Below, piece after piece: positions 4,627 through 51,132 of a DNA stretch of 64,000 bases. The notes under the pieces were generated by a model, which was given only the letters and a program-made list of their open reading frames with translations, had not been told where the DNA came from and made no database searches. The stretch's first letter is position 1. Every line of letters begins with the position of its first letter. The DNA lies in NCBI GenBank assembly GCA_949948745.1, contig CATLHA010000002.1:11195-75194 (forward strand), written 5' to 3'. Origin of the DNA: an uncultured Bacillales bacterium (lineage in GTDB: Bacteria > Bacillota_I > Bacilli_A > RF39 > UBA660). The translations under genes were made by a program, and so were the position numbers.

Positions 4627-5115
4627 TTACTCATCAATTTTATTTTTTAAAATAATACTTTCTAAAGAAGAATATACTTGATCTATTTCTTCTTTTTTTC
4701 CTTCAATTGCGACTACATTCATGCGAGGAGAGATATATTTATCAATTTCAAACACAACATTTTTCTTTTTAAAAACAATACGTTTTCTTTTAAATATCTT
4801 AATATTTGTTAAATCTAGTATTTGAATTAAAGAATCAACAAATTTTTTATTTTCTTTTGTAATAACTAAATCTTCTGATTCTCTAGAAATTTTTAATGGA
4901 CTACTATTTAAATTATCATCTTTAAAATTTAAAATACTAACTTTCTTATCATTATAAGTATTCGTAGTAATTCTAGCCATAACTTTTCCACCATTTTTAT
5001 ATAAGGTACGAACTTGTTTATATTCTTCTACTATTTTATAATGATTCTCTTCACAATATTTAATAAAATCATTTACACTTTTTACTTTAAAACTATATTC
5101 ATATTCTTCATTCAT
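4627..5115 (-). CDS. CYTH-like (CyaB/thiamine-triphosphatase-type triphosphate tunnel) domain protein, tentative
   Basis: 162 aa. N-terminal EEYEYSFKV and C-terminal KRKRIVFKKKNVVFEIDKY...NVVAIEGK resemble the CYTH beta-strand motifs (ExExK ... hDxhxG..hEhE). The start overlaps the upstream stop (TAATG at 5113-5117). Confidence 0.4.
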   Translation of the reverse strand: MNEEYEYSFKVKSVNDFIKYCEENHYKIVEEYKQVRTLYKNGGKVMARITTNTYNDKKVSILNFKDDNLNSSPLKISRESEDLVITKENKKFVDSLIQILDLTNIKIFKRKRIVFKKKNVVFEIDKYISPRMNVVAIEGKKEEIDQVYSSLESIILKNKIDE

Positions 5116-6503
5116 TATTTTTTCCTCTTCATAAGTACTGGATTTGGATAATTAAATCTAGTAAAAACTTGATATTCTGGATATCCTACTAAAAAATGCA
5201 TACTTGCTTCACATGCATCATCTGTAGAATGCACATAATTTGTAAGTAAATTAGGATCCCATAACATTTTTTCACCATTAAACCATTCTACATAATGACC
5301 TTTAATTTTTTGTCCATAATTCTTTCGAATCCAATGCTTTCTTTCATTTAATAGATCTTGATCATCGTTTAATAAAATAACTTTATTAGGGCCTTTCATC
5401 TGATAGTTATATTTCATACCATGTGGATGAAAGAAACTCATAGGATATAAACCAAGTTCTGATTTTTCCCCTATATTACAATCATACTCTGTAATTAATC
5501 TTCTTTGATCTGGAATCATAGATAAAGTAACAGATTTAGAAATTCCTAATAAATAAGAAGAAGATTTAATAATAATAACGTTATATCCAAATTCATAGAA
5601 TAACCGTGGCGTAATATGATTATATAAAATTGACATATCCCTTAAATCTAAATATTTATCTTTCTTCTCTTCTCCAATAATCTTTTGTGCCTCAATTTGT
5701 TGTGCTTTATAATCTTTACTATTTTCTAGTAAGAATTCTAAATTAGATTTCCAACGTTCAATTACTGGTTCCTTATGAATATCATTTAACTGTTCTATAT
5801 TTTCAAACTCAGTAATTTTATCAAAAAATTCATGTTTTAAAATTTCTTTCAAATGAGAAAAATTACTATCCATAACACATTCGTAATATCGATAAAATAA
5901 TCCATCTAAATAATCAACATTCTGAAGTGACTTTTTAAAGATATTATAATTTTCAATCTGAGAATAGTTATATTGTCCATGAGAAATATAATACATATCA
6001 TTTCGAATAAGAGAAATTAATTCTTCTAAAGTAGAATCCACTACTGTATAAGACTGATAGATATCTTGATGTTCTAAATCAATAACTTTTCCATAAGTAT
6101 AACCAACATCTGGAGTAGTATCTACCATAAATGTTTTATTATTAGGAGCTTCTACAATAACAACAAAATGATATAAAGAACTATTTTTTAAATCAATATT
6201 CTTTCTACTGTTTACCAAAGCCAAATGACTCTTTGGAAAAAGGTTTAAATCATGAATATAATCTAAAAACACTTTAGAAGAAGTAAAATCATCTCCCATT
6301 AATATATCTCTATCATTATTTGGATTGGGATACTTCATATAAATCATGCTTTGCCTAACAAGATCCGCTAGTACTTGTAGTTGCTCTTTCACATATAATT
6401 TAGAGAATTCACGCACCATTGGAGTTTCAGAAAATGTTTCCGTAGAATCAGAAATTGGAACTAAGTCCTCTAATCTTGGTAAGTATTTATTCATAATCAT
6501 CAC
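5115..6503 (-). CDS. hypothetical protein (462 aa), no recognisable motif
   Basis: Long ORF translationally coupled on both sides (overlaps at 5115 and 6487-6503). Confidence 0.6.
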   Translation of the reverse strand: MMIMNKYLPRLEDLVPISDSTETFSETPMVREFSKLYVKEQLQVLADLVRQSMIYMKYPNPNNDRDILMGDDFTSSKVFLDYIHDLNLFPKSHLALVNSRKNIDLKNSSLYHFVVIVEAPNNKTFMVDTTPDVGYTYGKVIDLEHQDIYQSYTVVDSTLEELISLIRNDMYYISHGQYNYSQIENYNIFKKSLQNVDYLDGLFYRYYECVMDSNFSHLKEILKHEFFDKITEFENIEQLNDIHKEPVIERWKSNLEFLLENSKDYKAQQIEAQKIIGEEKKDKYLDLRDMSILYNHITPRLFYEFGYNVIIIKSSSYLLGISKSVTLSMIPDQRRLITEYDCNIGEKSELGLYPMSFFHPHGMKYNYQMKGPNKVILLNDDQDLLNERKHWIRKNYGQKIKGHYVEWFNGEKMLWDPNLLTNYVHSTDDACEASMHFLVGYPEYQVFTRFNYPNPVLMKRKK

Positions 6504-21555: not shown

Positions 21556-21790
21556 GTTTGAGCATGAAAAAACGACAACTCACACCTAAGGGCGAATTGT
21601 CGCGGTACCACCTTATTTATAGATTTCTCTATATCTCTAATTTCTTAACGCGAAATATACGCTTAGCTTTTTACTAAGAACTCCAAAGGTGAATTCTTAA
21701 GAACTATCTTCCTTGTTTTCACCAACCACAAGGTCTCTAATAAGATATTTTTCTTAGTACTACTCCTTTATCCAAGTCAAACTCAATATG
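21556..21790 (-). promoter_or_regulatory. T-box riboswitch leader with Phe (UUC) specifier, upstream of pheST
   Basis: Minus strand shows AGAGA box, specifier context GAAUUCACC, T-box sequence AAGGUGGUACCGCG, then terminator CGACAA...UUGUCG plus U6 (21567-21602). Confidence 0.85.
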
Positions 21791-36201: not shown

Positions 36202-36237
36202 ATTTTTAGCCTCCTATCATATATAATGATATCAAAA

Positions 36238-36270
36238 AAAAAAGCATCTTGGAAGATGCTTTCTTTATTT
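36238..36270. terminator. bidirectional hairpin terminator downstream of ppdK
   Basis: AAGCATCTTCCAAGATGCTT flanked by A/T runs. Confidence 0.6.
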
Positions 36271-44382: not shown

Positions 44383-46434
44383 TTACTCTCCCTTTGCATT
44401 TTTTTCATTTGTTTTACATTCTGAATTACTACATTTCACTTGACTATTTTTTTCAACTAGCAAACTACCACACTCTTTACAGATATCACCAGTTGGTATG
44501 TCCCAAGTAGCCACTTTACATTTTGGATAATTATTGCATCCATAAAATATTTTACCACGTTTTGTCTTTTTTTCTATGATTTGTCCCTTTTTACAAATAG
44601 GACAATCCATAATTATTTTCTCTTCTTTTAGTTCCTTCTTTATATATTTACATTCTGGATAATTACTACAAGCGGTAAATTCACCATATCTACCTTTTCG
44701 AATAACTAATGGACTTCCGCACTCTGGGCAAGTCTCTCCTGTTTCCTTTGGTGGAACTTTTTCCATTTCACCAAATGCTTTCTTAACAGTAGGTTCAAAT
44801 TTTTCATAGAAAGTTTCCAATACCTCCAAGGATTTTTCCTTTCCTTCTGCAATCTCATCTAAATCATGTTCCATCTGTGCTGTATATTTAACATTAATAA
44901 AATCTGAAAATCCTTCCTGTAATTTATCTGTAGTAATAATACCTATCTCAGTTGGCTTAAATTTCTTATCTATTACTTCTACATATCCGCGTGCTTTAAT
45001 TGTATCAACAATTGTTGCATAAGTAGATGGTCGACCGATTCCTAAATCTTCCAACTCCTTAATCAATTTTGCTTCACTGTAACGTGCTGGTGGAGATGTA
45101 AAATGTTGTTTAGACTCAACATCATCTGTCATAAAAGTTTTTTCACTCATCAGTTTTTCCGGTAATATTTTATCTTCACTATCTTCATAATCTGCGTATA
45201 GTTTTAAATAACCATCAAAAATTAGAACTTGACCATTTACTTTAAATTGATATTCATGATTATCTAAAATAACACTAGTTGCTCTAACTTTAGCATCACT
45301 CATTAAAGAAGATAAGGCTCTCGTATAAATGAAACGATATAGTTTATATTCATCAGGAGTTAGATATTGTTTCATCTCATTAGGGGTACGATTAATACTA
45401 GTTGGACGGATTGCTTCATGTGCATCTTGGATATTTTCATTTTTCTTTGACTTTTTTACATATCCAACATATTCTTTTCCATACTCTTTAAAAAGATATG
45501 CTTGTGCAGATGATACAAATTCATCACTCAAACGAACTGAATCTGTTCTCATATAAGTAATAAGTCCAACTGTTTCAGTTCCCAAATCAATACCTTCATA
45601 TAATTTTTGTGCCAAACTCATTGTCTTCTTTGCTGTAAATCCTAATTTTGTAGAAGCTTCCTGCTGTAAAGTAGATGTAATAAAGGGAGCCTTTCCTTTT
45701 TTATTCTTTTCTTTTTCTTCAACATTAATAACTGTATAAGTAGAATCAATAGATTTAAGAACAGAATCAACATCATCTTTAGTCTTTAATTCTATCTTTT
45801 TATTTTTATATTGAAATAATTCCGCCGAAAAATCATCAAATAGTGCAGTAATTGTCCAATATTCTTCTGGAATAAAAGCTTCTATTTCTCTTTCACGATC
45901 TACAATTAATTTCAGTGCCACACTTTGAACCCTTCCAGCAGACTTACCGCCTGTCTTTGACTGCATTAATTTACTCAAACGGAATCCTATAATACGATCT
46001 AAAATTCTTCTAGTTTCTTGACTATGAACTAAATCTTCATCAATCTTTCTTGTAGATAAAAATGCTTCTAATACTTTATCTTTTGTAATTTCATGAAACA
46101 ATACACGTTCATAATTATTATCTTTAATTCCTAATGTTTCTTTTAAATGCCATGAAATTGCTTCTCCTTCACGGTCAGGGTCGGTTGCTAGATAAACTTT
46201 GTCTGCTTCTTTTACATTTTTTTTAAGTTCAGAAACCAATTTTTTCTTTCCACTAATCAATATGTAATTAGGTTCAAAATGATTATCAACATCTACACCA
46301 AGACCATACTTACCAGTTGTTGCAAGATCTCTAATATGTCCAACAGATGCTACTACTTTATAATCTTTTCCTAAATATTTTTCTATAGTCTTACTTTTAC
46401 TAGGTGATTCCACAATTACCAATTTTTCTGCCAT
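44383..46434 (-). CDS. topA: DNA topoisomerase I
   Basis: Toprim plus Topo IA core (…YLATDPDREGEAI…) and C-terminal zinc ribbons (CPECGSPLV…, CPICKKG…, CKECGSLL…). Confidence 0.9.
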   Translation of the reverse strand: MAEKLVIVESPSKSKTIEKYLGKDYKVVASVGHIRDLATTGKYGLGVDVDNHFEPNYILISGKKKLVSELKKNVKEADKVYLATDPDREGEAISWHLKETLGIKDNNYERVLFHEITKDKVLEAFLSTRKIDEDLVHSQETRRILDRIIGFRLSKLMQSKTGGKSAGRVQSVALKLIVDREREIEAFIPEEYWTITALFDDFSAELFQYKNKKIELKTKDDVDSVLKSIDSTYTVINVEEKEKNKKGKAPFITSTLQQEASTKLGFTAKKTMSLAQKLYEGIDLGTETVGLITYMRTDSVRLSDEFVSSAQAYLFKEYGKEYVGYVKKSKKNENIQDAHEAIRPTSINRTPNEMKQYLTPDEYKLYRFIYTRALSSLMSDAKVRATSVILDNHEYQFKVNGQVLIFDGYLKLYADYEDSEDKILPEKLMSEKTFMTDDVESKQHFTSPPARYSEAKLIKELEDLGIGRPSTYATIVDTIKARGYVEVIDKKFKPTEIGIITTDKLQEGFSDFINVKYTAQMEHDLDEIAEGKEKSLEVLETFYEKFEPTVKKAFGEMEKVPPKETGETCPECGSPLVIRKGRYGEFTACSNYPECKYIKKELKEEKIIMDCPICKKGQIIEKKTKRGKIFYGCNNYPKCKVATWDIPTGDICKECGSLLVEKNSQVKCSNSECKTNEKNAKGE

Positions 46435-46461
46435 ACAAATTCGCTCCTTTGCTCTTTAACA

Positions 46462-46490
46462 TTTATACTAATTATTTTCTTTCTTGTCAA
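46462..46490 (-). promoter_or_regulatory. sigma-A promoter TTGACA-17-TATAAA for topA
   Basis: Minus-strand hexamers followed by SD AAAGGAG and the ATG. Confidence 0.55.
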
Positions 46491-46537
46491 TATTTATTCT
46501 TCTATAATTTAATTATACCAACTTTTTTACAGAAAAA

Positions 46538-46572
46538 AACAAAAAAAAGAAGTTAAAGTTTTTAACCTCTTA
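46538..46572 (-). terminator. terminator downstream of the vWA/DUF285 surface-protein gene
   Basis: GTTAAA-AAC-TTTAAC stem plus T8 on the minus strand. Confidence 0.45.
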
Positions 46573-46579
46573 ATTATAA

Positions 46580-49500
46580 TTAAACAACAAGGGAACCTTT
46601 TACTACATTAGAATTGCTAGATTTTGTGGTAAGCATGGAATCTACTAAATTAGAATTATTACTTGTATAATTAATAATAAGTTTTGCTGGAGAATTCTTT
46701 GCTGTTCCAAAAAAAGCTTCTGAATATGTAGTATTTGTTGTACGTATTGTAAACGTTGTAGTTAAACGCCAACAATTGTAAAAGATTTTATCCATTCGAG
46801 TCACATTTCTTGTATCAAAACCACTTAAATCAAAATCACCTAATGATGTACAATTAAAAAACATTTCCTCCATACTTGTCACCTTTGAAGTATTAAAGTT
46901 AGTAACATTTAGATTTCCTAATCTTTGACAATCTCGAAACATTCTTGTCATATCAGTTACACTAGATGTATCAAAATTCTGAAGAATAGTAGTTATATAC
47001 CAACATGCCCGAAACATAGAGTCCATGGTTATTACTTTACTGGTATTAAAATAACGCAAATCTAAAGACTGAATTTTTCCTAATTCAAAAAACATATAAC
47101 TCATATTTGTTACATTAGAAGTATTAAAACTACTAACATTCAATTCAGGAAGATTTTTACAAGAACAAAACATATAAGCCATATTTGTTACTTTAGATGT
47201 ATTAAATTTACTTACATCAAGATTAGTTAAAGACTTACAAGCATGAAACATATAAGCCATATTTGTTACTTTGGATGTATTAAATTTACTTACATCTAGT
47301 GCCGTAATATTATTACATTCTTGAAACATATAGCCCATATTTGTTACATTTGATGTATTAAATTTACTTACATCAAGATTAGCTAAAGACTTACAAGATT
47401 GAAACATATAAGCCATATTTGTTACTTTGGATGTATTAAACTTACTTACATCTAAACTTGTTAAACTACTACAACCACGAAACATATTTTGCATTGTTGT
47501 AACTAAAGATGTATCAAAAGTATCTATATTTATATTTAATACTTCTAATTTATTACATTCTTGAAACATTCCAAGCATCGTTGTAACATTTTTTGTATTG
47601 AAATTTCTGATATCTAAATTCTCTAATTCATAGCAATTATTAAACATATTAGATGTATTAGTTACCTTTTCTGTATTAAAACTGCTTAAATTAACTGATT
47701 TTAAATAATTTGTATTACTAAACATAACCCTCATTGTTGTTACATTACTTGTATCAAAATTACTTAAATCTAAATTAACCAATCCAGTTCCTGCAAACAT
47801 CGCGGTCATGTCTGTTACTTTTGATGTATTAAAACTACTTAAATTAATTTCTTGAAGTTTAGAAGTTCCTCCAAACATCCACTGCATTGTTGTTACATTA
47901 CTTGTATCAAAACTACTAACATCTAAACTTGTCAATGCCAAATTGTCTCGAAACATATTTAACATGGTTGTTACTTTACTTGTATCAAATGTCCTTAAGT
48001 CTAAACTCTTTAAACTCTCACACCAACCAAACATAGAACTCATATCAGTAACATTAGATGTATCAAAATATTCTATTCCCTCCACACTTTCTAATCTCCT
48101 AAATTGATTAAATAAATAGGAACTATTTTTATTCGCTATTACTCTATTATCCCCTTGGATATATATTGTATAAGTAGAAGAATCTTCTACATTAGGTACA
48201 ACTCTTCCCATTACCCCAAAATTATTTTCTTCTGACAAATCAAAGCTTTCTAGAGTATTATACACTTCTTTAATTTGATCTTGAAATACTACCTTTGTTA
48301 CCGAATCTTTATACTTCCATATCTCCTCTGCTCCTGTATCCGAATTTAATGCAACTTGCATTTTAGGAACTGGCGCTACATAAATTTCTCCACTCATAGA
48401 TTTCGCCAAAGATAGTTTTCGCCACTCTGCTTTTAATACTACATCTGCTTCTGGCATAATAAAGTAATCATCATTTATTTGCTTTGCCTCTACTCCCATC
48501 ACTTTCCATTCTTGAAATCGATATCCTTCACATTCTGGAACTATTTCACTAATGGATACCTTATCAAATACAAAGTGATTTTCTGATATTGGTATATTCC
48601 TTACAGTACATCCCTCTGGTGCATTTCCTTCATAACTTACTCGATAATTATTCGATATTCTTGGTGTTTCTGTACTTGTTATATTTTCTTCTATCCCACC
48701 AATACTACTTTCTACTTTCTCTTTATTATTTGTATTATAAACACCTACTTGATTTATATAATTACTCTTTAATTCTACATCAAGTTCCATCTTTAATTTA
48801 GATCCTGATTTTAAATTATCAATTGTCCATGTTACTTTTTGTTCTTCTTGATTAAATGTAACATTTCCTTGACTGACTGTAATATCATTACTACTTTCTA
48901 ATTTAAAATTACTAGTATCTATATAATCTGTTAATACAAAATTATCATATGAAGTTGGTACAATAGATGCATCAAATAATATATTATTTAGTGTTTCTAT
49001 ATCTGCTAGATATTGATTATCTGATACTTTCTTGATTGGATCTAGAATATCCATCCCCATTTCATATTGAATTCCATTAACTATAACTTGTGGATATTCT
49101 TGTTTTAGATATTGAAAATAACTTTCCTCGTTTGGTGTATCTTCACAAGGATAACCATCTGTTAAAAATAAAACAATACAATTTCTATCATTACTTGATA
49201 TATAATTTTTTAATATATTATCTACATTGATTAAAGCTTGATAATAATTTGTTGTTCCTTTTTCACTTAGATTATTTATTAAACTTATCAAAGTAGTTTT
49301 ATCATTCGTAAAATCCGATAATATTTCTGAATCTGTATCAAATGTAATTAAGGCAGCTTTATTATTAGAATCTGATAGTAATGTATCAACAAGTCCTATA
49401 CTGTCTTGTTTTACTCTTTCTATTTTATTTCCACTCATGGAACCTGAAATATCCAGTACAAATATAATATCTCTATTTTTATCTTCTGTTTTCAATATGG

Positions 49501-49744
49501 TATCTATTTGAAAGGTAATCCTAGCTTTTCCACTACCTATCCACTCTGCGCTCTTCTCTACTTGAAAGCTTCCTGGTTCTTTTTTATTATAATTTAACTT
49601 TTCTGATGAAAAATTAATACTCTTTATTGGAGTAACTAGTGCAAAAGAACTATAAAGTAATCCTGTTATTGTTAATAAAAAACCTACAACTACAATTGAT
49701 AGTAAAACAAACTTATTTGGTACTTTCAAAATATCATTCTTCAT
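46580..49744 (-). CDS. secreted/surface protein with N-terminal vWA domain and long array of DUF285/BspA-like ~23-aa repeats
   Basis: Signal/TM segment, vWA MIDAS motif VLDISGSMSGNK, then ~25 repeats of LDxSxFNTSxVTNMxYMFxxCxxL. Confidence 0.75.
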   Translation of the reverse strand: MKNDILKVPNKFVLLSIVVVGFLLTITGLLYSSFALVTPIKSINFSSEKLNYNKKEPGSFQVEKSAEWIGSGKARITFQIDTILKTEDKNRDIIFVLDISGSMSGNKIERVKQDSIGLVDTLLSDSNNKAALITFDTDSEILSDFTNDKTTLISLINNLSEKGTTNYYQALINVDNILKNYISSNDRNCIVLFLTDGYPCEDTPNEESYFQYLKQEYPQVIVNGIQYEMGMDILDPIKKVSDNQYLADIETLNNILFDASIVPTSYDNFVLTDYIDTSNFKLESSNDITVSQGNVTFNQEEQKVTWTIDNLKSGSKLKMELDVELKSNYINQVGVYNTNNKEKVESSIGGIEENITSTETPRISNNYRVSYEGNAPEGCTVRNIPISENHFVFDKVSISEIVPECEGYRFQEWKVMGVEAKQINDDYFIMPEADVVLKAEWRKLSLAKSMSGEIYVAPVPKMQVALNSDTGAEEIWKYKDSVTKVVFQDQIKEVYNTLESFDLSEENNFGVMGRVVPNVEDSSTYTIYIQGDNRVIANKNSSYLFNQFRRLESVEGIEYFDTSNVTDMSSMFGWCESLKSLDLRTFDTSKVTTMLNMFRDNLALTSLDVSSFDTSNVTTMQWMFGGTSKLQEINLSSFNTSKVTDMTAMFAGTGLVNLDLSNFDTSNVTTMRVMFSNTNYLKSVNLSSFNTEKVTNTSNMFNNCYELENLDIRNFNTKNVTTMLGMFQECNKLEVLNINIDTFDTSLVTTMQNMFRGCSSLTSLDVSKFNTSKVTNMAYMFQSCKSLANLDVSKFNTSNVTNMGYMFQECNNITALDVSKFNTSKVTNMAYMFHACKSLTNLDVSKFNTSKVTNMAYMFCSCKNLPELNVSSFNTSNVTNMSYMFFELGKIQSLDLRYFNTSKVITMDSMFRACWYITTILQNFDTSSVTDMTRMFRDCQRLGNLNVTNFNTSKVTSMEEMFFNCTSLGDFDLSGFDTRNVTRMDKIFYNCWRLTTTFTIRTTNTTYSEAFFGTAKNSPAKLIINYTSNNSNLVDSMLTTKSSNSNVVKGSLVV
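46840..47900. repeat. intragenic 66-69-nt tandem repeats (near-identical copies) encoding the DUF285/BspA-like modules
   Basis: catatttgttactttggatgtattaaatttacttacatc and variants recur every ~69 nt (e.g. 47263, 47332, 47395). Confidence 0.75.
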
Positions 49745-49776
49745 ATTCTAATCTCCCATCTTACCTTATAATTAAT

Positions 49777-49806
49777 ATTATACCCCCCCCCAGGCGAATT
49801 TTGCAA
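49777..49806 (-). promoter_or_regulatory. candidate phase-variable promoter: TTGCAA -35, 18-nt spacer containing G9, TATAAT -10
   Basis: Minus strand reads TTGCAA-AATTCGCCT-GGGGGGGGG-TATAAT, then 26 nt with SD GGGAG, then ATG at 49744. Confidence 0.55.
49783..49791. repeat. C9/G9 homopolymeric tract
   Basis: The only long G/C homopolymer seen in this AT-rich window; it sits in the promoter spacer. Confidence 0.9.
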
Positions 49807-49894
49807 TATTAACTTCTTGTAATACTTAAAGTGTACTTTTTGTGCTGGTAAACTTAAAGTAGACAGTGAGAAGAAAAAAACATAGTATACAAAA

Positions 49895-50025
49895 AAAGAC
49901 ACTCCTAAAACTGAATGTCTTTATTATAAGTATATTATGGCATAATTTTTATTATTATATTTTTTATTTTTTAATAATCATACTTTTCATATACAAAATA
50001 AAAGGAAGAATTCTCTTCCTTAATT
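49895..50025 (-). terminator. two intrinsic terminators downstream of ftsZ
   Basis: GGAAGAGAATTCTTCC plus T-run (~50003-50025) and AAAGACA…TGTCTTT plus T7 (~49895-49922). Confidence 0.5.
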
Positions 50026-50031
50026 TAACTC

Positions 50032-51132
50032 TTAGAAATTTCTATTTTGTAGGAATACCGGAATATCATCATCACCGTCGTCATCATCATCAAAGTCCTC
50101 AATAACCTCAATATCACGAGCTTGACTACGACGAGTATTTTGTACATTGTTATATACTGGTTCTTTTTGTGATTGAGTAGATGCTTTATCAAAACCAGTA
50201 GCAATAACTGTAACAATAACTTCATCAGTTAAGTTCTCATTGATAACAGAACCAAAAATTGTATTAATTTCAGTATTAGCAGCAGCTCTCACTACTTCAG
50301 CAGCTTGTTCCGCTTCAAACAAAGTTAAGTTAACTCCACCTGTAACATTAATAATTGCATCTGTAGCACCAGAAATACTTGTTTCCAAAAGTGGAGAGGA
50401 AACAGCCTGTTTTGCAGCTTCAATCGCACGATCTTCACCCATACCAATACCAATACCAATAATTGCATTTCCTGAATTTTGCATTACAGCCTTTACATCA
50501 GCAAAGTCTAAGTTAACAAGTCCAACTACTGCAATTAAATCTGAAATTGATTGAACACCACGACGAAGTACATTATCTACTTCTTTAAATGCTTCAAGCA
50601 TTGGTGTAGTTTTATCGATAATTTCTCTTAAACGATCATTTGGAATTACAATTAAAGTATCTACATGTTTCTTTAATTCTTCCAATCCTTTTAAGGCATT
50701 ATCCATCCTTCTTTTTCCTTCAAAACCAAATGGCTTTGTAACAATAGCAACAGTAAGCGCTCCAAGGGATTGGGCAATCTCTGCAGCAACAGGAGAAGCA
50801 CCAGTACCAGTTCCTCCACCCATACCACAAGTAATAAATACTAAGTCAGCTCCTTTTAAAGCTTCCTCGATTTCTTTTTTAGATTCTACTGCAGCTTCCC
50901 TACCAACATCTGGATTGGCACCTGCACCTAATCCATCAGTAAGATTCGCTCCAATCTGTATCTTAATATCTGCATTAGAATTATTAAGTACCTGTAAATC
51001 TGTATTGGCTACAATAAATTCAACACCCTTTACACCAGACTCAATCATTCGATTGACAGCGTTACATCCACCGCCACCAATACCAATTACTTTAATCTTA
51101 GCTAACTGATCCATTTCCAATTTATTTAACAT
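50032..51132 (-). CDS. ftsZ: cell division protein FtsZ
   Basis: [13 protein letters not shown] tubulin motif; start at MLNKLEM after SD GAGGAGGA (the track start is a TTG within the SD). Confidence 0.9.

Follow-up and report, generated by a model that had tools for sequence, protein, structure and literature searches.

A length-variable poly-G tract in the promoter spacer of vWA/DUF285 surface-protein genes as a probable phase-variation switch in an uncultured gut bacterium

Introduction

The 64,000-nucleotide stretch of DNA analysed here, referred to throughout as the window, carries on its minus strand a surface-protein gene whose candidate promoter holds nine consecutive G residues between the -35 and -10 hexamers. 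The question raised by this arrangement is whether the tract changes in length by slipped-strand mispairing and switches the gene on and off, whether it serves some other purpose in the promoter, or whether its apparent variation is an artefact of sequencing.

Bacteria with multi-locus SSR phase variation include Neisseria, Haemophilus, Campylobacter, Helicobacter, Treponema and the mycoplasmas, all of them pathogens. In Neisseria meningitidis a poly-G tract lies in the -35/-10 spacer of porA; in T. pallidum a poly-G tract lies between the -35 and -10 elements of tp0126, with an optimum at 17 nt, and the tprE/G/J promoters are permissive at 8 G or fewer (PMC7864442). Every promoter of the M. 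hyorhinis vlp family contains a poly-A tract, and the proteins vary in size as well, whereas the Vsa system of M. pulmonis relies on a site-specific DNA rearrangement that moves the expression site (PMC10502178). In Mollicutes, surface-protein repertoires of the DUF285/BspA kind are known to vary (PMC10634449, PMC2824730). Metagenome data for Ca. M. girerdii have shown SSR phase variation in BspA-like genes, acting through intragenic dinucleotide repeats (PMC5476646), and M. agalactiae has poly-A/poly-G tracts at the 5' ends of surface-lipoprotein genes (PMC2824730). Multi-locus SSR phase variation has been documented almost only in pathogens, and whether this reflects biology or sampling bias is open (PMC11868660).

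In this study, we examine the promoter, the tract and the product of the window gene, and compare the tract with its counterparts in public assemblies, at other loci of the species and in a sister species. The explanation that we consider best as a whole, and probable, is a hypermutable G tract in the spacer of a predicted sigma-A-type promoter that would form part of a multi-locus phasome.

Results

A candidate promoter with a G9 tract in its spacer

The features at the window locus, which is called locus A below, are listed here; "cassette" denotes the promoter arrangement that recurs at further loci.

46580 to 49744, minus strand: regulated gene, encoding the 1054-aa surface protein (Pfam domains, hydrophobic segment)
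49745 to 49776, minus strand: predicted 5' leader of 32 nt with Shine-Dalgarno sequence GGGAG, kept in paralogs A and D
49777 to 49782, minus strand: -10 hexamer TATAAT, abutting the G tract; TATAAT or TATACT in all cassettes
49783 to 49791, minus strand: poly-G tract, G9 in the window (C9 on the plus strand)
49792 to 49800, minus strand: AATTCGCCT, the non-repetitive part of the spacer; its CCT, 5' of the G run, is invariant in all cassettes
49801 to 49806, minus strand: -35-like hexamer TTGCAA, from the sequence and from cassette comparison
49807 to 49824, minus strand: TATTACAAGAAGTTAATA, upstream cassette element, a degenerate local copy of GTTTAC-N5-GTTA(A/C)
49895 to 49922, minus strand: second terminator-like hairpin with a T run behind it; the -35 hexamer is about 90 nt downstream
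50002 to 50021, minus strand: intrinsic-terminator-like hairpin of ftsZ, predicted to insulate the promoter from upstream transcription

A preliminary description of this sequence had read TTGCAA, an 18-nt spacer containing G9, and TATAAT on the minus strand, and our coordinates agree: the spacer consists of AATTCGCCT plus G9 and runs from 49800 to 49783. The Shine-Dalgarno sequence that it had placed ahead of the ATG was located at 49757-49753, 8 nt 5' of the start codon (49744). Between the end of the -10 hexamer and the ATG there are 32 nt on the minus strand, where 26 nt had been given. A homopolymer of at least 8 nt lies, in other words, between recognisable -35 and -10 elements of a gene with its own RBS, as in switches of the porA and tp0126 type.

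The tract stands out from its surroundings, as had been claimed for it. The window has a G+C content of 29.4% and its other G/C runs do not exceed 5 nt, with none of 6-8; a G/C run of at least 9 has an iid expectation of about 0.014 per window and was reached in 3/300 mononucleotide shuffles.

In a consensus scan of 46300-50300, TTGCAA-18-TATAAT scored 10/12 hexamer positions, equal-best, and was the sole minus-strand promoter-like candidate in the ftsZ-to-gene intergenic region. Sigma-70-like hexamer pairs as such were no commoner in this AT-rich DNA than in shuffles (22 observed; 29.4 expected), so that the promoter call rests on position, score and conservation across paralogs. Two terminator-like hairpins lie upstream, which makes read-through unlikely and means that the gene needs a promoter of its own. 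From this evidence we infer that TTGCAA/TATAAT is the promoter actually used by the surface-protein gene.

Two other readings of the region were set aside. A riboswitch or leader RNA was ruled out, since no Rfam family was found at the locus at the gathering threshold (the sole match in the window was a T-box at 21585-21783) and the folding of the promoter region was not unusual (z = -1.84). An inverton was likewise ruled out: the inverted repeats within +/-500 nt were merely short, AT-rich, imperfect pairs rather than proper flanking repeats, and the promoter had the same orientation in all assemblies.

Tract length differs among assemblies at the window locus

The same gene was traced in independent public assemblies by exact-protein look-up; L-numbers are the labels of loci fetched from these assemblies. 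The tract at locus A reads as follows.

JGI 3300006168 (source of the window): G9
ERZ13631964 (L013): G9; 100% identical over 10.1 kb and so not counted as independent
JGI 3300006149 (L015): G9
ERZ28624347 (L002/L010): G10
JGI 3300006147 (L003): G10
ERZ12802904 (L014): G10
ERZ28621250 (L018): G10
JGI 3300006213 (L016): poly-A/poly-G junk with perfect flanks, treated as an assembly artefact

Locus A carries G9 in three assemblies, including the one not counted as independent, and G10 in four. The preliminary description had named G8/G9/G10 heterogeneity as the check on its proposal; the assemblies do differ, with G9 and G10 present at this locus and G8 absent. The protein was 100% identical in most of them, and the flanks were at least 99.7% identical. 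Between the window and ERZ28624347 (L010) the tract was the sole indel over 10.1 kb, alongside 27 SNPs. Outside the DUF285 repeats it was also the sole indel between the window and ERZ12802904 (L014), and the comparison with L003 over 3.4 kb gave one mismatch, one 1-nt indel near the contig end, and the tract at G10. A polymorphic tract with invariant flanks among close genomes is the pattern expected of the porA and tp0126 type. Scans of metagenome contigs with a gapped promoter pattern and with the ungapped 5' leader gave no match, this collection evidently being without these samples.

Among the homopolymers compared, length variation was confined to the poly-G tracts. In the same assemblies, A/T runs of 7-8 nt (n=38) differed in 0/132 comparisons and G/C runs of 5 nt (n=7) in 0/36; the poly-G promoter tracts differed in 13/20 comparisons, against 0/168 at the control runs. 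A T10 run in a terminator tail (window 36234-36243) and a neighbouring A8 were invariant in ten further assemblies (JGI, ENA, Logan). Generic homopolymer assembly error is ruled out by the invariant A/T runs and T10.

The promoter cassette recurs at five further loci

Paralogs were collected by a homolog search with the window protein, the closest ones then being looked up in assemblies. The cassette was found at five more loci, namely those of four vWA/DUF285 paralogs and one prepilin-like gene. Loci A-F share samples and contigs, and one MAG (GCA_949451585.1) is shared as well, which assigns them to one species.

Locus A: window gene P0001, between ftsZ and topA; G9, G10
Locus B: P0003, 54% identical to the product of the window gene, downstream of spoIIGA and a sigE-like gene; G9, G10, G11
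Locus C: 599-aa prepilin-type (N_methyl) gene, adjoining locus B; G9, G10, G11
Locus D: P0044, 59% identity, after an EF-Tu-domain-3-like gene (PF03143); G9, G10, G11
Locus E: P0028, 45% identity, after pgi; G9, G11
Locus F: P0023, 49% identity, after spoIIP; G10

The elements of the cassette are always in the same order: GTTTAC-N5-GTTA(A/C); TTG(C/A/T)(A/C)A, a few nucleotides further on; 7-9 nt with CCT at the end; Gn; TATA(A/C)T; and a short leader with a Shine-Dalgarno sequence. The -35 position holds TTGCAA, TTGAAA or TTGTCA at the same place in 7/7 cassettes. A promoter cassette shared in the manner of vlp and of tpr subfamily II is present at six loci, with one more in the sister species described below. 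Exact copies of GTTTAC-N5-GTTA(A/C) occur just upstream of poly-G promoters and nowhere else in the 36 loci searched for the motif (about 0.27 Mb, from overlapping assemblies), and all G/C runs of at least 7 nt in the fetched DNA of the species lie in cassettes, save the garbled tract of L016. Chance occurrence of the tract is ruled out by its recurrence at the same promoter position in seven loci.

Tract lengths vary independently by locus, while each protein sequence is identical in the assemblies compared, as the design of the look-up requires. The lengths are 10 and 11 in L020, 9 and 10 in L021, and 9 and 9 in L022; GCA_949451585.1 has B=10, C=10 and D=11, and ERZ13631964 has A=9, B=10, C=10 and E=9. 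With n residues in the tract, loci A, B, D and E have a spacer of 9+n nt, locus C one of 8+n and the sister species one of 7+n; the spacers observed therefore span 17-20 nt overall, and 18-20 nt at the four loci with 9+n. The preliminary description had suggested that loss of one G would bring the window spacer to the optimal 17 nt. The arithmetic is sound (G8 = 17 nt), but G8 was seen in 0/35 tract observations, including 0/25 at loci A, B, D and E, where G8 corresponds to 17 nt. In L003 and L031 the same alternative upstream junction is found on two different paralogs.

Sister species, distant homologs and host

In a sister species (TopA about 85% identical), GCTTGCAAAAAGCCT-G10-TATAAT, with a 17-nt spacer, precedes a 50%-identical homolog; this promoter reads TTGCAA-AAAGCCT-G10-TATAAT. 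In front of homologs further removed (L004, L036; 46-48% identity) lie ordinary, tract-free promoters. A scan of genome contigs with the protein returned distant homologs only, at 48% identity or less, the species apparently not being among the GTDB representatives searched; in the two AT-rich ones among them, every G/C run was shorter than 7 nt. The presence of the tract in the sister species and its absence from the distant homologs indicate a lineage-specific feature.

The nearest named TopA, at 74% identity, is that of a 'Tenericutes/Mycoplasmatota bacterium', and the surface-protein homologs are labelled 'Bacilli bacterium'. The genome, of about 29% G+C, is translated with genetic code 11. 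Among the genes seen, ftsA-ftsZ, spoIIGA, a sigE-like gene, spoIIP and vanY suggest a walled, spore-forming bacterium. The species is known only from metagenomes.

The surface protein and its own variation

The product begins with an N-terminal hydrophobic membrane anchor, followed by a vWA domain, an InlB-B-repeat-like segment, which is weak, and about 17 DUF285/BspA-type repeats of 26 aa. The vWA domain carries DISGS, which fits the DxSxS pattern of MIDAS sites. Pfam assigned VWA/VWA_2 and DUF285 (PF03382), the latter in 5 stretches, with E = 4e-103 and a score of 339.9 bits (cut-off 25); together with the anchor, this is the make-up of a BspA-like/DUF285 surface protein, and the NCBI name for the homologs is 'BspA family leucine-rich repeat surface protein'. 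These domains confirm the adhesin-like product with vWA and BspA/DUF285 repeats envisaged in the preliminary description.

Two further kinds of variation affect the gene. Alleles differ solely by whole 26-aa repeat units (+26, -52, and -51 with -52), and promoter and gene together form a block found in some assemblies of the species and missing from others.

46551 to 49995, minus strand: promoter-plus-gene block of about 3.45 kb, with ends uncertain by about 16 nt (T-rich microhomology)

Discussion

Mechanism of the proposed switch

The tract-specific length polymorphism and the recurring cassette support the probable slipped-strand phase variation put forward in the preliminary description, and the poly-G tract is very probably an on/off switch, of a known type, of the surface-protein promoter. 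As we picture it from the comparisons above, slipped-strand mispairing at replication would add G residues to the tract or remove them, and tract length would set how far apart the -35 and -10 hexamers lie (G8 = 17, G9 = 18, G10 = 19 and G11 = 20 nt). The changed spacing would turn transcription of the gene up or down in a random and heritable manner. With at least six loci carrying the same cassette, and each tract varying on its own, a combinatorial repertoire of surface proteins could result, to which repeat-number size variation of the proteins and gain or loss of whole genes would add further diversity. Under this mechanism, expression would be expected to respond to tract length, and a clone to switch rapidly and reversibly. 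Hints of length differences at clonal level may be seen in L003, almost identical to the window strain over 3.4 kb yet with G10, and in the contig breaks at the tracts. The genome encodes MutS (mutS), so that tract variation needs no mutator background.

Spacers of 17-20 nt straddle the span over which promoters of the sigma-70 type lose their activity. The absence of G8 means either that most cells in vivo are in a low or OFF state, as has been reported for many contingency loci, or that the optimum or the -35 assignment is different.

Other explanations for the tract

One objection is that the tract is real but fixed, the length differences being homopolymer miscalls or assembler consensus errors at G9-G11. 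Long G runs are troublesome in short-read chemistry, and the lengths were taken from short-read consensus assemblies, so that a poly-G-specific error is possible for single +/-1 steps; the low-complexity junk of L016 falls exactly at the tract, and the short contigs L003, L025, L026 and L033 stop in the tract or no more than about 40 nt upstream of it. Real heterogeneity, however, would equally break contigs at the tract. The differences reach 2 nt (G9 versus G11) and come from four pipelines (JGI, ENA, NCBI MAGs, Logan), loci vary independently within one assembly, and T10, A8 and the 38 A/T runs are constant in the same data. G tracts of at least 8 have, moreover, proved hypermutable in all organisms tested for this; in T. 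pallidum, 76% of 17 tracts are variable (PMC7864442). Given the 2-nt steps, the variation by locus and the four pipelines, a poly-G-specific error is unlikely as the source of the pattern, and we regard the idea of a fixed tract as very improbable. A tract that is hypermutable and yet acts as a rheostat, or is effectively neutral, is a different matter, though this too we hold to be quite unlikely. Drift in length would then stay inside tolerated limits of 9-11, affecting expression by degrees or hardly at all, and the reason for the tract's conservation would lie in DNA structure, in spacer stiffness or in a role as a hotspot for recombination between cassettes. The fact that only three lengths (9-11) occur would fit, as would the absence of the canonical optimum from the observed tract lengths, and the alternative junction shared by L003 and L031 on two paralogs hints at exchange at the cassette; the T-tract of H. 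pylori sabA is a precedent for graded control (PMC4081817). Against this reading stands the strict position of CCT-Gn-TATA(A/C)T at seven loci in two species, from which we argue that selection acts on promoter function. A second point against it is that 1-nt steps in spacers of 17-19 nt are known to change promoter strength, each shifting that of a sigma-70-type promoter several-fold. Effects of spacer length on promoter strength are exemplified by porA and tp0126 (PMC7864442).

The tract might instead belong to an activator-dependent promoter, where it would set the distance and helical phase between an activator and the -10 hexamer rather than the -35/-10 spacing, and where expression would require an environmental signal in addition to a permissive tract length. 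Tract-dependent phasing of activators occurs in Bordetella fim and meningococcal nadA/opc. The GTTTAC-N5-GTTA(A/C) element, which resembles an 11-bp direct repeat, could be an activator site or an UP-like element, an 11-bp periodicity being typical of response-regulator sites. Its exact copies lie solely upstream of poly-G promoters in the loci fetched, cassettes C and S, though divergent and changed in the surrounding sequence, retain it, and an activator would account for the dominant 18-20 nt spacers if TTGCAA were not a classical -35. The distance from the motif to TTGCAA, however, is 3 nt in some cassettes and 8 nt in others, which puts the motif on the opposite face of the helix; this 5-nt shift speaks against a rigid geometry. 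The window copy of the motif is also degenerate (TATTAC), and, the cassettes being paralogous, the shared sequence may reflect ancestry alone. We consider an activator-phasing role unlikely, and a switch acting through -35/-10 spacing is the reading adopted in what follows.

Relation to known phase-variable systems

The locus belongs to the general class of promoter-SSR switches, and porA, tp0126 and tprE/G/J are its closest mechanistic matches. As in porA and tp0126, a G tract in the spacer of a surface-protein gene sets the spacing, and tract lengths of 9-11 are in the same range. The host here, in contrast, is neither a proteobacterium nor a spirochaete: it is related to Mollicutes, of Gram-positive type and low GC (29%), and has sporulation genes; the proteins (vWA/DUF285) are unrelated, the spacers of 18-20 nt are not centred on 17, and the system is known from sequence alone.

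The closest architectural match is vlp. Both vlp and tprE/G/J are multigene surface families in which each gene has its own copy of a tract-bearing promoter (PMC10502178; PMC7864442), and here as well the tracts vary locus by locus while in-frame repeats add size variation. Vlp proteins, however, are lipoproteins encoded at one locus and controlled by poly-A; the present tracts are poly-G, the proteins combine a membrane anchor with vWA and DUF285, and the genes are scattered, lying beside ftsZ, sigE, pgi and others. No homology to Vlp or Tpr proteins or promoters was found, Pfam giving only VWA, DUF285 and B-repeat domains, so the set is an analogue of those families and not a member.

The BspA-like/DUF285 repertoires of Mollicutes (M. 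agalactiae drp; Ca. Mycoplasma girerdii) comprise the same repeat family and are likewise large and strain-variable. Their phase variation involves intragenic frameshift repeats that act on translation, whereas the promoter tract described here would act on transcription, and the present proteins have an added vWA domain. The vsa genes of M. pulmonis are also a phase- and size-variable surface family, but they depend on rearrangement and the window promoter has no flanking inverted repeats. Of the analogies drawn in the preliminary description, those to Vlp, to Neisseria (porA) and to Haemophilus are apt, the (TA)n spacer switches of Haemophilus and Vmm being valid parallels. The analogy to Vsa falls away, since that system switches by rearrangement (PMC10502178).

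Implications

The mechanism has long been known from porA, tp0126/tpr and vlp; to judge from the sequences compared here, the lineage and the protein family would be new for promoter-tract switching, and the literature searched held no description of such switching in either. If the proposed switch is real, an uncultured, commensal-type gut bacterium would possess a multi-locus SSR phasome. Tract lengths already differ among public assemblies, which makes the system testable from existing reads, and CCT-G(>=8)-TATAAT offers a simple signature for phasome searches in other commensals. Annotators would do well to mark these vWA/DUF285 genes as probable contingency loci and to keep homopolymer 'errors' at their promoters instead of polishing them off.

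A broader possibility, which we put forward tentatively and regard as doubtful, is that a vlp-like system evolved independently in this lineage, with a portable cassette on at least six unlinked surface-protein genes that would be both a poly-G switch and a recombination substrate. The cassette in this sense consists of the putative activator site, TTGCAA and CCT-Gn-TATAAT, and one of its genes is pilin-like. Such a cassette would re-join promoters, upstream contexts and genes; the junction common to L003 and L031 and the gain and loss of the gene block are the observations cited for it.

Variation in the surface-protein gene

The gene for the 1054-aa vWA/DUF285 surface protein is carried within a block that also contains its promoter:

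Window ~46551-49995, about 3.45 kb: whole promoter and surface-protein gene block, absent from L008, L011, L012 and L017

In these four same-species assemblies the topA promoter directly adjoins the ftsZ terminator, and the junctions are imperfect T-rich repeats of the form TTTT(A/G)TTTT. The surface-protein gene is thus accessory and represents an insertion/deletion polymorphism within the species. Where the gene is present, the alleles (window 46580-49744; proteins P0138, P0002 and P0135) are 99.9-100% identical outside whole-repeat differences, which consist of 26-aa DUF285 units gained or lost whole (+26, -52, and -51 together with -52 aa). The surface protein thus varies in size through repeat recombination, in addition to the proposed promoter switch.

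Two assemblies show irregularities at the tract or the adjoining -10 hexamer. At L016:5846-5898 (JGI 3300006213), GGGG-A12-T-A18-TATA-A8-GCGGC-G15 stands in place of the tract between flanks that are both 100% identical to the window; this sequence is almost certainly an assembly artefact, which suggests heterogeneous or poor reads at the tract. At L018:1453-1470 (ERZ28621250), G10 is followed by TTTAAT rather than TATAAT, a substitution at the most conserved -10 position, in front of a shorter allele of 951 aa. The promoter in this assembly may be locked off.

Poly-G promoters at other loci and their upstream elements

A poly-G promoter was also found before locus C, and the GTTTAC-containing motif and a further conserved segment lie upstream of such promoters:

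L019:5152-5161: poly-G promoter of locus C, TTGCAA-AAAGGCCT-G9-11-TATACT, downstream gene from 5206
Window 49807-49824; L019:1416-1431 and 5115-5130; L027:5920-5935; L032:1124-1139; L034:1119-1134; L035:2423-2438: GTTTAC-N5-GTTA(A/C) motif
Window 49860-49887; L032:1095-1125: additional upstream conserved segment, TGTCTACTTTAAGTTTACCAG[C/T]ACA

The product of the locus C gene, 599 aa in length, has a prepilin-type N-terminal methylation domain, and the proposed switch therefore extends beyond vWA/DUF285 genes. The GTTTAC-N5-GTTA(A/C) motif is direct-repeat-like with an 11-bp periodicity and, among the fetched loci, is confined to positions upstream of poly-G promoters; the window copy is degenerate (TATTAC). 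We consider it a candidate regulator-binding site. The additional segment lies outside the core cassette and is common to the window gene and locus E (P0028).

An identical alternative upstream junction (..CATGTACTTTTTTGAGTTTACAAGAAG..) occurs at L003:1-40 and L031:620-690, from sister JGI samples, where it stands before two different paralogs, P0001 and P0044. The shared junction reflects either recombination at the common promoter cassette or chimeric assembly through the repeat of roughly 50 nt.

Other features of the window

Three further features were recorded:

21585-21783 (-): T-box leader, RF00230, 118 bits
34477-36201 (-): PMT-family membrane protein, dolichyl-phosphate-mannose protein mannosyltransferase-like, 574 aa
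36234-36243: A10 (+), T10 on the coding strand, terminator-hairpin tail after a PPDK-like gene

The T-box leader was the sole Rfam match at the gathering threshold in the whole window. The A10/T10 run is the window's longest homopolymer and is constant in length in 10 assemblies. The PMT-family protein points to possible O-glycosylation of proteins in this lineage and could bear on its surface proteins. Across the whole window, nearly all long ORFs lie on the minus strand and C greatly exceeds G on the plus strand (11870 vs 6929), a very strong gene-strand and GC-skew bias of the kind typical of Firmicutes with PolC.
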